A stretch of DNA of 64,000 bases from Bdellovibrionales bacterium (GCA_050248995.1 JBFWRI010000003.1:28619-92618), one strand, 5' to 3'; numbered from the stretch's first letter, positions 55,584 to 58,091 are shown. Made by a program: numbers and translations. Notes: generated by a model not told the origin, from the sequence alone.

Positions 55584-56750
55584 TCAGTGGTCATCCTCTG
55601 CTCCGGCTGAGAAGCCCTTGGCGAGAATCAGGAACTGGCGACGGTCAATCAAGCCTGCATCATACGCGCGCTGCGCGCTGCGCTCCATCGGACGACCGAA
55701 TTGTACAACAAGACGCTGCGCTTCGCTCGTCCACCGTTCGAGCGGGGTTTCCAGCATGCGCTCGCGCAGGTCATCGCTGAAAATTAAAAACTCGCGCACA
55801 CCAATGCGACCACCACCCACTTTAGGCACCAGCGCCTGTGTAACGATGAGCCGCAATGTTTCCATCAGCGCGTATGCCCGTTCAGTTCTCTCGGCCGGCT
55901 CAAACACGGAAACCATACGACGGATCGTAGCGGCCACACCGATCGTGTGTGCCGTTGAATAAACGGTATGGCCCGTCTGCGCGGCTTCGATTGCAGCCGC
56001 AACGGTCTCGCGGTCACGCGCTTCACCAACCAGAATAATATTCGGCTTCCGCCGCAGCGCGTTGCGCACTCCCGCGGCAAATGTCGGGATATGGCGCGGC
56101 ACTTCGGTCTGCGCGACCAGACTTTTTGGCCCGACGATAGCGTCATATACATATTCGATAGGAGCCTCATACGTCAGCATTTTACCGCTACCTGCAGGAC
56201 GTTCAATCAGCATACGGTTGCCGGCGGCCAAAAGGGTAGACTTACCACTACCAGTTGGCCCGGTAATCAAAACGAGTCCCTGCCGCGGGGCCCACGCGTC
56301 AACAATCTCCTGCTCGATTCCTAGTTCAAGTAGTGTCGGTGGCAATGATGGCAACACACGCATAGTCACCTGCACAGCATCGCGGCCGCGCGAAAGAATG
56401 GCAGTAATGTTCACACGAAACCTGACACGCGAATTACGATCTAGTTTAATTTCGTAGCTGACATCGAGGTCCTTCCCTGCCGCCAGCTTAGCCAGCGCAT
56501 CAGGTCCGTAGATGCGATTAAGGACGGCCCCCATATCAGCCGAATCGAACGGGCGGCGTGTGCCTGGATACAGTGTGCCGTCAACTTCAATGTAAAGTGG
56601 ACGGTCTGTCTGGATCGAGATGTCCGATGCGCGTTTGTTGACCGCCCACATCAACATATCATCAAGATTCTCTTCACGCAGACGGGGTGGCTCTTCCGGC
56701 CACGGCTCCAAATCGACGATCTTGCCGTCTACCGGGGCGTCGGTTGCCAT
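55584..56750 (-). CDS. PilT/DotB-family hexameric ATPase
   Basis: LVLITGPTGSGKSTLLAA Walker A. IILVGEARD. 388 aa, no N-terminal GspE N-domain. Size and motifs are those of PilT/PilU/DotB. Confidence 0.85.
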   Translation of the reverse strand: MATDAPVDGKIVDLEPWPEEPPRLREENLDDMLMWAVNKRASDISIQTDRPLYIEVDGTLYPGTRRPFDSADMGAVLNRIYGPDALAKLAAGKDLDVSYEIKLDRNSRVRFRVNITAILSRGRDAVQVTMRVLPSLPPTLLELGIEQEIVDAWAPRQGLVLITGPTGSGKSTLLAAGNRMLIERPAGSGKMLTYEAPIEYVYDAIVGPKSLVAQTEVPRHIPTFAAGVRNALRRKPNIILVGEARDRETVAAAIEAAQTGHTVYSTAHTIGVAATIRRMVSVFEPAERTERAYALMETLRLIVTQALVPKVGGGRIGVREFLIFSDDLRERMLETPLERWTSEAQRLVVQFGRPMERSAQRAYDAGLIDRRQFLILAKGFSAGAEDDH

Positions 56751-57592
56751 CTGTCACTTTCTGTCACGAACTGGGAGGGCCCAGTGATTTCAAGGCCACG
56801 GTCGCCGATGCGCAGCTCGTTCCCATCTCCTGTAATGCCACGGTTTTCCGCTAGGGCATAAGGTGGGGTAATCATGCCCTGCGCTAGCAATTCGCGATAT
56901 CGTACCATCCCAACAAGATCGTTCGTCAGCCTGTCCAGATCGGCCTGAAAAATCTCATCAGCTTGCTCAACGCCGGCCTGCCAGCCAAATTTGATGCCCT
57001 GTTCCCACGACTTGCGCTCACGTTTCGTACGGGGACGCAGTAATCCGGGCGGTGGATCCACGACACCCCAATCGCGCTCAAGGTATGTACGCCAATCGCG
57101 CGGGGCGCTCACAATTTTTGCCTGACGGTTTATCTTCAGTACGCGATCAGCCGTTGCCGCTTCTTGCCCGCCCCCTTTGATTAATAACGCCTGCTGCGCT
57201 TCACTCACCACCGGCGGTTCAATCAACAATCCATTCGCCGACGGAATCAGCAGCCGACGGAAATCGTATATTCTGGTGAGATGAGATTCCTGTTCAGCCA
57301 GTCGCCGCTGAATTTCAAAAGTCCTGTAGGCCAATCCACCGCGTGCGCCGTATGACAGTGCGGCTTCTTCCAAAGCATCGGCCCGGATATCGAGAGAATT
57401 TTGTTTTTCTTTCTCGATAATATTCTGTTCGTCTTCTTCATCGTCAATCTTCGGGACATTCAGGACCGTCATGTAGTCTGGTGGCGGTGGGGACGCGGAT
57501 TCATCGTCATAAAGCTGGGCATGGGCCGACAGCGGGCTTGCACACAAAACTAGCAATAAAAACGCTATGTATTTATTCTTCAGATGCTGCAT
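56729..57592 (-). CDS. secreted protein, candidate DotC/TraI-like T4BSS core component (tentative)
   Basis: Signal MQHLKNKYIAFLLLVLCASPLSAHA. About 290 aa. Sits between the DotD-like lipoprotein and DotB-like ATPase genes, as in the Legionella dotDCB and R64 traHIJ arrangements. Confidence 0.4.
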   Translation of the reverse strand: MQHLKNKYIAFLLLVLCASPLSAHAQLYDDESASPPPPDYMTVLNVPKIDDEEDEQNIIEKEKQNSLDIRADALEEAALSYGARGGLAYRTFEIQRRLAEQESHLTRIYDFRRLLIPSANGLLIEPPVVSEAQQALLIKGGGQEAATADRVLKINRQAKIVSAPRDWRTYLERDWGVVDPPPGLLRPRTKRERKSWEQGIKFGWQAGVEQADEIFQADLDRLTNDLVGMVRYRELLAQGMITPPYALAENRGITGDGNELRIGDRGLEITGPSQFVTESDRWQPTPR

Positions 57593-58091
57593 AACGCATC
57601 TCGAGTGCACGATGGCTGGCATCCAGCACGATATCGGCGCGACCAGTCATCTGCAGCGCAGCGCTTTTAACCAGTTTAATAAGCGGCTGCTGATACTCGT
57701 CGACTGTGATTGTCACAGACGCGGTAGGTCGCGCACCCAAAACCCGAAACTGGTACCCTGCCCGCGCGGCCATCATTTGCAAGAATTGTTCTGCCGGGCC
57801 AACCCACGTAATTGTGACGGGCTCCATCAATTCAGGCGGCGCCGCGCTGTAATCATCAACATCAGGCGCAGGGCTACGCATCTGTTCGACGCCTGAAATC
57901 GTGTTAAGTGCCGTTGCAGCTTTTTCGGCAGCTTCGGCCAAGCGAAGAGTCACAGTGTCAGGAGCCGCGACAGCCGGCGCTGCCGCAGATGCTGCGGGTT
58001 GATCAGGTTGCGCCCCCCAATCGCCCATGCTGCCGCATGCCGCTAAAAGCGGTAACGCCAAGAAGATGGCAAACGCGCGCCAGTAACTCAT
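57573..58091 (-). CDS. lipoprotein, DotD/TraH-like (tentative)
   Basis: Lipobox LLAACGS. About 170 aa. Pattern LRLAEAAEKAATAL...W.GP.EQFL...A...GYQFRVLG..P...V.I........LIKLVKS...Q...A.IV......ALEMRY resembles DotD-family lipoproteins as recalled. Confidence 0.45.
   Translation of the reverse strand: MSYWRAFAIFLALPLLAACGSMGDWGAQPDQPAASAAAPAVAAPDTVTLRLAEAAEKAATALNTISGVEQMRSPAPDVDDYSAAPPELMEPVTITWVGPAEQFLQMMAARAGYQFRVLGARPTASVTITVDEYQQPLIKLVKSAALQMTGRADIVLDASHRALEMRYAASEE

Follow-up and report, generated by a model that had tools for sequence, protein, structure and literature searches.

We analysed a window of 64,000 nucleotides from a genome named Bdellovibrionales bacterium (GCA_050248995.1, JBFWRI010000003.1:28619-92618), focusing on three genes that an initial annotation, made from the sequence alone, had likened to dotD, dotC and dotB of the Legionella type IVB secretion system (T4BSS) and to traH, traI and traJ of IncI plasmids. 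The annotated interval, 55584-58091, contains three open reading frames (ORFs) on the minus strand, with borders exactly as had been given (Table 1). Searches with DotC, DotD and DotB profiles, which had been proposed as a check, returned matches to all three families.

The 172-aa lipoprotein, in which a DotD-family region had been suspected, matched the Pfam DotD model with an E-value of 3e-26 (92 bits, cut-off 27) and the NCBIfam model T4SS_lipo_DotD with 2.4e-22 (79.7 bits, which is under the strict equivalog cut-off of 140 bits), and resembled the Legionella DotD structures 3ADY and 6X62 in the PDB with a value of about 3e-11. The second gene had been described as coding for a secreted protein of about 290 aa in the position of DotC. 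Its product, which carries a signal peptide, matched Pfam T4SS_TraI, the DotC family, across the full profile (E = 2e-76, 256 bits, cut-off 26) and Legionella DotC with 5.5e-41, and is 44% identical to DotC from a Roseomonas plasmid and 33% identical to TraI of IncI1. The likely start codon is at position 57592, as in the NCBI call, yielding a protein of 287 aa that is 100% identical to protein P0001 from the metagenome-assembled genome (MAG).

The third gene codes for a 388-aa ATPase that had been assigned to the DotB type. The best score among the NCBIfam models was indeed that for DotB (396 bits, not reaching the cut-off of 463), followed by TraJ (248 bits) and PilT (227 bits, not reaching the cut-off of 319), and within the PDB the E-value was 5e-105 for Legionella DotB (6GEB) as compared to 1e-50 for the top PilT. 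The comparison with Legionella DotB gave 355 bits, and the catalytic motifs are intact in the sequence. For the phylogeny, which had likewise been proposed, a neighbor-joining tree was inferred from the window ATPase, DotB of Legionella and Yersinia, TraJ of IncI1, DotB of the Roseomonas plasmid and three PilT proteins. All DotB and TraJ sequences were separated from PilT in 200 of 200 bootstrap replicates, with the window ATPase placed in the DotB/TraJ clade, so that the outcome named in the initial annotation as contrary to its proposal, a grouping with PilT or PilU, was not observed. In the trimmed alignment, the window ATPase has an identity of 46% to Legionella DotB, as compared to 33-37% for the other members of the tree, including TraJ and PilT. 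It has in common with PilT and PilU the ATPase superfamily, the Walker A, Asp, Walker B and His boxes and a similar size; an identity as a PilT/PilU retraction ATPase was nevertheless rejected on the basis of the model scores and the position in the tree.

A fourth gene of the same unit, icmT/traK, was overlooked in the initial annotation. The genes are tightly packed: dotD and dotC overlap by 20-50 nt, dotC and dotB overlap by 22 nt, and dotB and icmT are separated by a gap of 43 nt. The order dotD-dotC-dotB-icmT corresponds to traH-I-J-K of the IncI1 plasmid, as had been recognised for the first three genes, and is also found in the Roseomonas I-type (MPF_I) plasmid, where it directly follows dotO. 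As judged from the sequences, the triplet is genuine dotD, dotC and dotB, which together with icmT constitute a conserved four-gene traH-I-J-K module. The promoter-like site located just upstream of dotD is a candidate only, because sites of this kind are no more frequent in the region than expected by chance; scans of the region for promoters and terminators gave no enrichment over shuffled sequences.

Table 1. Positions of genes and other features in the block that contains the dotD-dotC-dotB-icmT module, listed from the end of the window downwards
Feature	Position	Strand	Characteristics
First gene of block, secreted, Cys-containing protein	63644..64000	-	3' part only in window; 300 aa overall; complete on Logan contig L001:447-1349
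Secreted Cys-containing protein, variable part of block	62283..63647	-	454 aa; sole match among relatives in L004, 22% identity
Secreted Cys-containing protein, variable part of block	60988..62280	-	430 aa; signal peptide visible; weakly conserved among relatives
Conserved cytoplasmic all-helical protein, lineage-specific	59939..60805	-	288 aa
SLT-domain lytic transglycosylase	59454..59951	-	Pfam SLT 2.4e-7; NCBIfam TrbN 3.9e-28, under cut-off
Periplasmic DsbC/DsbG-like thiol:disulfide isomerase, TrbB-like	58438..59412	-	NCBIfam DsbG 6.6e-19, under cut-off; syntenic
Conserved small protein with two hydrophobic segments, lineage-specific	58160..58429	-	89 aa; syntenic in 12 relatives
Promoter-like site just upstream of dotD, candidate only	58122..58150	-	TTGGCA-17-TATAGT, 10/12 matches
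dotD/traH, outer-membrane lipoprotein	57573..58091	-	172 aa; lipobox LLAAC with Cys19, read from sequence
dotC/traI, secreted outer-membrane core protein	56729..57622	-	Maximal ORF 297 aa; signal peptide
dotB/traJ, PilT-like hexameric secretion ATPase	55584..56750	-	388 aa; Walker A GPTGSGKST; without GspE N-domain
icmT/traK, small inner-membrane protein	55271..55540	-	89 aa; NCBIfam NF038220 IcmT_TraK 74.6 bits, cut-off 40; precomputed Pfam PF28014 IcmT_2
pilL-like, TcpQ domain	53976..55169	-	Pfam TcpQ 4.6e-14; weak STN match
pilN, type IVb pilus secretin	52312..53970	-	NCBIfam TIGR02520 284.3 bits, cut-off 287.65; Pfam Secretin
pilO	51025..52299	-	Pfam PAP_PilO 7e-28
pilP-like	50199..51053	-	NCBIfam pilP_fam 2.8e-6, under cut-off; lineage profile against IncI1 PilP 2.6e-8
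pilQ, GspE-family pilus assembly ATPase	48126..50168	-	680 aa; Pfam T2SSE 3e-52; NCBIfam GspE/PilB-type matches
pilR, platform protein	47037..48122	-	Pfam T2SSF 7e-23
pilS, type IVb major pilin	46432..47097	-	Pfam PilS 1.3e-9, Bundlin, N_methyl; IncI1 PilS 1e-10
Strong terminator-like hairpin directly after pilS	46389..46425	-	15-bp stem followed by T run
Protein with N-terminal hydrophobic helix	45807..46334	-	175 aa; no family match; unlike IncI1 or Roseomonas T4BSS proteins
pilV-like minor pilin or adhesin	44415..45794	-	Pfam N_methyl 1e-8; C-terminal Peptidase_S74 2.6e-14
Secreted Cys-rich protein, last gene of block, followed by gap	43993..44418	-	141 aa; no family match; unlike IncI1 or Roseomonas T4BSS proteins

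The module is embedded in a pilus cluster, as had been stated, and the pil genes linked to it were identified with Pfam, NCBIfam and lineage profiles as being of the IncI/R64 type. The type IVb pilus set comprises PilN, PilO, PilP, PilQ, PilR, PilS and a PilV-like protein, with matches above the Pfam cut-offs for PilO, PilS, T2SSE and T2SSF. Neither a prepilin peptidase (peptidase A24, PilU) nor a shufflon recombinase (Rci) was found among the ORFs of the block; the peptidase may be encoded elsewhere. The position of the hairpin would fit attenuation, by which the expression of the pilin is kept high relative to that of the downstream genes. In phage tail fibres and endosialidases, Peptidase_S74 acts as the intramolecular chaperone, and the pilV-like protein may be a fibre-like adhesin at the tip of the pilus.

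In the PilL-like protein, residues 50-119 are similar to the C-terminal half of a hypothetical protein of 143 aa from the T4BSS cluster of the Roseomonas plasmid (L029:7468-7899; lineage profile E = 1.6e-21). In two related loci, L026 and L027, pilL remains beside dotDCB-icmT although no pilN follows, and the protein may functionally be part of the Dot module.

In total, the block spans about 21 co-oriented genes and 20.6 kb on the minus strand, from about 44.0 kb to the end of the window, with most genes abutting or overlapping. The lineage profile of the SLT protein is most similar to the SLT protein of the Roseomonas T4BSS (7e-35) and also matches IncI1 PilT (2e-12), while the profile of the Dsb-like protein matches IncI1 TrbB/DsbC with 2e-6. 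The 89-aa protein with two hydrophobic segments has no Pfam or NCBIfam match and is unlike IncI1 and Roseomonas T4BSS proteins. No Pfam, NCBIfam, PDB-profile or informative fold match was obtained for the 288-aa protein, for which the structure model is confidently helical (pLDDT 84). At the head of the block, the 300-, 430- and 454-aa proteins have no family match in Pfam or NCBIfam and do not resemble IncI1 proteins or those of the Roseomonas T4BSS; the 430- and 454-aa proteins are weak paralogs of each other (E = 1e-4). This variable head is swapped for other unannotated proteins in relatives, and one counterpart in L004 has a very weak, sub-threshold match to the Ntox28 toxin domain (E = 0.006). 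The three secreted proteins could be structural parts or substrates.

To place the locus in a broader context, we compared it with 25 species-level MAG loci from genomes named Micavibrio, Alphaproteobacteria, Rhodospirillaceae, Bdellovibrionales or similar; Micavibrio is placed under Bdellovibrionales in the NCBI taxonomy. The order g288-SLT-Dsb-(tm89)-dotD-dotC-dotB-icmT-pilL-N-O-P-Q-R is kept in most of these loci. Identities to the window proteins were 60-82% for DotB, 49-65% for DotC and 36-47% for DotD, the last of which is kept in 23 related loci, and homologs in metagenomes number in the hundreds. The module is also found in other settings. In L014 (9319-12240), dotD-dotC-dotB-icmT form an island of their own between murJ and lepA, and pil, Dsb and SLT genes are all missing within 10 kb. 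In L026, the module and pilL are followed by flagellar genes without pilN, and L027 contains pilL with no match to pilN. The differing housekeeping flanks together with the deep divergence indicate vertical inheritance, and argue against a recent mobile element as well as against a decaying remnant.

Of the Roseomonas system, only DotD, DotC, DotB, IcmT, the SLT protein and the PilL-like domain have a match at the locus. The initial annotation had interpreted the genes as an I-type (MPF_I) type IV secretion system (T4SS) linked to its thin pilus. The I-type components and their linkage to the pilus hold, but the locus itself contains no VirB4-family ATPase DotO/TraU, type IV coupling protein (T4CP), DotG, DotH, DotI, DotA, relaxase or integrase and, lacking core T4SS genes, is not a self-contained T4SS.

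The missing components were instead encountered elsewhere in the relatives. JGI metagenome contigs were searched at the DNA level with a pattern corresponding to the motif D-E-x-H-R(15 residues)R-E-G-R-K of DotO, and 118 of the 120 matches encode DotO. One of the loci, L106 (positions 214,991-222,990 on contig Ga0302251_1000002, 823,676 bp in size), codes for DotO, DotM, a 186-aa protein and an 814-aa coupling protein; its DotO is 41% identical to Roseomonas DotO, its DotM matches PF23127 with 3e-48, and the coupling protein is recognised by its T4CP domains. The same contig contains, at 352,461-373,330, the genes g288-SLT-Dsb-DotD-DotC-DotB-IcmT-PilL-PilN-PilO-PilP-PilQ-PilR, with a DotC that is 61% identical to that of the window. 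In this relative, the ATPase and the coupling proteins that are missing from the window are thus encoded at a distance of about 130 kb from the same cluster. Two other routes to the DotO of the lineage led elsewhere: the best 120 matches in a protein search with Roseomonas DotO were all Roseomonas-like plasmid proteins, and candidates chosen by composition and tree position led to loci resembling plasmids or integrative and conjugative elements (ICEs). The representative library contained 150 diverse DotO sequences.

About 15 further loci contain a DotO that is 57-80% identical to that of L106. The arrangement DotO-DotM-x-DotL is repeated in L055 (DotM_C, 2e-45; T4CP domains), while L089 encodes DotH (5e-73), a TrbI-domain DotG and further genes before DotO, and L157 two copies of DotI, DotH, a TrbI-protein DotG and further genes before DotO. 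DotG, DotH and DotI are thus found in loci of the L106 DotO clade, none of them on a contig seen to carry dotDCB as well. In L093, DotO is followed by genes for an aldo-keto reductase, MltA and a Tim44-like protein; the flanks of both L093 and L157 consist of housekeeping genes. In none of the loci of this clade that extend far enough is dotO followed by dotDCB, unlike the arrangement on the plasmid. L157 is further flanked by ankyrin-repeat and metabolic genes, along with genes for a terminase and a portal protein of the phage type. In this locus (Logan SRR29476933 contig, 107-18789), DotI-DotI-DotH-DotG-...-DotO is flanked by four ankyrin-repeat proteins, the size of one being 754 aa, a hint that some members may have a eukaryotic target.

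The available part of the gene table of Micavibrio aeruginosavorus ARL-13 lists a gene named icmO (2583 nt) followed by hypothetical genes of 582 nt and 1215 nt, the latter with 404 codons and of the size of DotM (GMV_382-385; PMC3189940). In order and size, as listed there, this trio resembles DotL, the 186-aa protein and DotM of L106, and icmO is situated near dnaA, gyrB and argS (PMC3189940). A search of the table by gene lengths and product names did not reveal the dotDCB-pil cluster among the genes listed (PMC3189940).

When compared with known systems, the locus combines features of several. It shares with the Dot/Icm system of Legionella the orthologous DotD, DotC, DotB and IcmT, a DotB that is more similar to the Legionella protein than to plasmid TraJ, chromosomal genes split over several loci and, in the relatives, DotI (the two copies in L157 being comparable to DotI/DotJ), DotH, DotG, DotO, DotM and DotL. 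It differs in that the host is an alphaproteobacterium rather than a member of the Legionellales, in that dotDCB-icmT are contiguous and joined to a type IVb pilus operon that the Legionella system does not have, and in the conserved genes of its own lineage for the 288-aa helical and 89-aa membrane proteins; IcmS, IcmW, IcmQ, IcmR and IcmX were not recognised here. The IncI1 R64-type system (traE-K and pilI-V) likewise has the traH-I-J-K order beside an R64-type pil operon (PilN, O, P, Q, R, S and V homologs) along with a DsbC-like TrbB and a lytic transglycosylase. However, the tra module is located upstream of pilL here, whereas the IncI1 pil operon is upstream of traE-K; the block contains no shufflon/rci or prepilin peptidase, no traL-Y, trbA, trbC or nik genes are nearby, and the genes are chromosomal and not mobile, with identities of only about 33%. 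The MPF_I plasmids of Roseomonas mucosa (e.g. NZ_CP025192) carry the closest plasmid-borne DotC, the order dotD-dotC-dotB-icmT-...-SLT and a homolog of the N-terminal PilL domain. On these plasmids DotA, DotI, DotH, DotG, DotO, DotD, DotC, DotB, IcmT and the T4CP are encoded contiguously without a pilus operon, whereas only the four-gene module and the SLT gene are found here, in addition to the pilus operon.

The surroundings of the block are those of an ordinary chromosome. Its border on one side is gap (GAPDH, 42989-44056). On the other side it is ileS, a divergent gene for a class I tRNA synthetase whose N-terminus is IleS-like, as seen on the Logan contig L001, which overlaps the end of the window. 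No integrase, relaxase, T4CP or tRNA attachment site was detected at these borders, and no relaxase/oriT, integrase or replicon in the 64 kb window, which otherwise contains polA, proS, secA, recA, ftsY, prfA and other genes. In the 25 related species, too, neither an integrase nor a relaxase was found within 10 kb of the module. The GC content is 51-61% in 2 kb windows, such that the term high-GC in the initial annotation was an overstatement, and the block is near its flanks in this respect. Only two tRNAs were identified with Rfam in the whole window, and a search of plasmids for near-identical DNA gave no match. We also noted a type I secretion-like cluster on the minus strand (11467-18523), consisting of genes for an HlyD-family protein, two ABC exporters and a 736-aa protein without Pfam match that may be a substrate or an outer-membrane factor. 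Two genes without a link to the cluster under study code for a Sel1-repeat protein with a peptidoglycan-binding domain (20583-21644, plus strand) and a Ysc84 (SYLF) domain protein (40336-41046, minus strand). Finally, two ORFs of 342 and 483 aa without Pfam match (7631-10107, plus strand) are located directly upstream of a gene for a Y-family (IMS) DNA polymerase (10172-11464).

Taken together, the block probably represents a single piece of a Dot/Icm-like T4BSS whose genes are dispersed over the chromosome and vertically inherited, and in which a thin pilus of the IncI kind has been retained. DotO, DotM, DotL and DotI/DotH/DotG, which relatives encode at other sites, would likewise be located at other chromosomal sites in this genome. 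A number of observations weigh against this interpretation. Searches with DotA, DotI, DotH, DotG, DotO and T4CP of the Roseomonas plasmid gave no match in the window, nor within 10 kb of the module in any of the 25 relatives. The search beyond the window for DotG, DotH, DotO and DotL that had been proposed was thus negative in the vicinity and successful only at a distance in a relative, for DotO-DotM-DotL, and the co-occurrence of these genes with the dotDCB cluster is seen on the contig of a single relative. At the operon level, the module has its link with pilus genes rather than with further genes of a T4SS. Neither an effector nor a relaxase or a translocation signal was identified at the locus; a relaxase may be present elsewhere in the genome. 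The genome paper on M. aeruginosavorus ARL-13 reported no evidence of a type III secretion system or a T4SS, and no DotB-sized ATPase is among the genes listed in the available part of its table (PMC3189940).

The operon linkage in particular favours the main alternative, in which DotD, DotC, DotB and IcmT were recruited to the type IVb pilus, or belonged to it ancestrally, and act independently of a T4SS channel. DotB would then be the PilT-like retraction motor that R64-type pili lack, while DotD, with its fold similar to the N0 domain of secretins, and DotC would be partners of the PilN secretin. Consistent with this, the module has the same orientation as pilL-pilV and is closely packed against these genes, both here and in most relatives, no T4SS core gene ever occurs within 10 kb of it, DotB belongs to the PilT-like superfamily, and the pil cluster encodes the assembly ATPase PilQ with no other PilT-like ATPase. 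This alternative is weakened by the stand-alone module between murJ and lepA in L014 and by the relative that has the same cluster as well as DotO, DotM and DotL. Moreover, the module in L026 is accompanied by pilL only before the flagellar genes begin, and all four proteins are orthologous to T4BSS components that act in Legionella and on IncI plasmids. In addition, traH-K of R64 are not known to be needed for the formation of the thin pilus. On balance, we regard a function restricted to the pilus as unlikely.

Much less is left of the explanation implied by the initial annotation, namely a complete conjugative I-type ICE with a thin pilus whose remaining tra genes are located just past the window. 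The gene order and the pil linkage do mirror IncI1 plasmids, MPF_I conjugative or plasmid systems exist in Alphaproteobacteria, and genes for a TrbB-like Dsb protein and an SLT protein are typical of conjugative systems. Yet the block ends at gap and the divergent ileS-like gene with no mobility gene or attachment site at these borders, its GC content is close to that of its flanks, its housekeeping neighbours differ between species at protein identities of 36-82%, and dotO and dotL are 130 kb from the cluster in the relative. The ICE explanation is very unlikely and for this locus largely refuted; nothing indicates conjugation or mobility. That the block is a decaying, functionless remnant of an anciently integrated IncI-like element, as its incomplete T4SS set and variable, unannotated upstream genes might suggest, is scarcely credible given that every ORF is intact, the overlapping start and stop codons and the catalytic motifs of DotB are preserved, order and sequence are kept across at least 25 species (DotB 60-82%, DotC 49-65%) and homologs number in the hundreds in metagenomes.

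If the block is interpreted as part of a dispersed T4BSS, roles for its proteins can be proposed by analogy with the Legionella Dot/Icm and IncI systems. The lipoprotein DotD, DotC and DotH would form the outer-membrane cap, DotB would be a cytoplasmic hexameric ATPase that docks on DotO and energises the channel, and IcmT an accessory protein of the inner membrane. Assembly through the envelope would be aided by the Dsb-like enzyme and the transglycosylase, and the type IVb pilus would bring the cell into stable contact with a target cell. Effector proteins bound for bacterial prey or for a eukaryotic host are possible cargoes, as is DNA. The Micavibrio-related lineage as a whole may carry a domesticated Dot/Icm-like T4BSS, dispersed over the chromosome, with the pilus holding the target while the T4BSS injects effectors into prey, as a part of epibiotic predation, or into a protist host, a scenario that we put forward only tentatively and consider somewhat doubtful.

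Some of what was found here is already known, in that the individual proteins are recognisable, annotation pipelines name the DotC/DotD family, and I-type systems are common on alphaproteobacterial plasmids. The presence of such a system in an alphaproteobacterium, which the initial annotation considered unexpected, is not in itself surprising, since IcmB/DotO homologs occur in records from Roseomonas, Acidisoma, Methylocella, Methylosinus and Devosia. Homologs with 65-100% identity to the plasmid protein of Roseomonas occur in large numbers in records from Acidisoma, Acidisphaera, Methylocella, Methylosinus, Devosia and others, which points to a putative large alphaproteobacterial I-type family that is plasmid-borne in Roseomonas. 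Thus, I-type systems are not rare in Alphaproteobacteria; what is unusual is the chromosomal, dispersed and vertically inherited version in the Micavibrio-related lineage. In reviews, effector-translocating type IVB systems are described from Legionellales and a few other Gammaproteobacteria, and elsewhere the type is known mainly from plasmid conjugation. In the literature searched, we found no description that links Micavibrio or Micavibrionales to Dot/Icm, and none of a T4BSS that has a thin pilus and is dispersed over the chromosome in Micavibrio-related bacteria.

In this alphaproteobacterial lineage, some MAGs of which are assigned to Micavibrio, a genus of predators, the module is a stable trait of the chromosome. 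Its arrangement joins two known states, the chromosomal and split genes with a Legionella-like DotB of Dot/Icm and the thin pilus linked to traH-K of IncI. If the machine injects proteins into prey or host, it would be a genetically testable candidate for the attack of epibiotic predators, and a useful intermediate for reconstructing the evolution of Dot/Icm from I-type conjugation systems. Should the tentative scenario of a pilus-assisted injection of effectors be true, the system would be the contact-dependent weapon of these 'leeching' predators that has so far escaped identification, and would add a T4BSS that translocates effectors in a group other than the Gammaproteobacteria.

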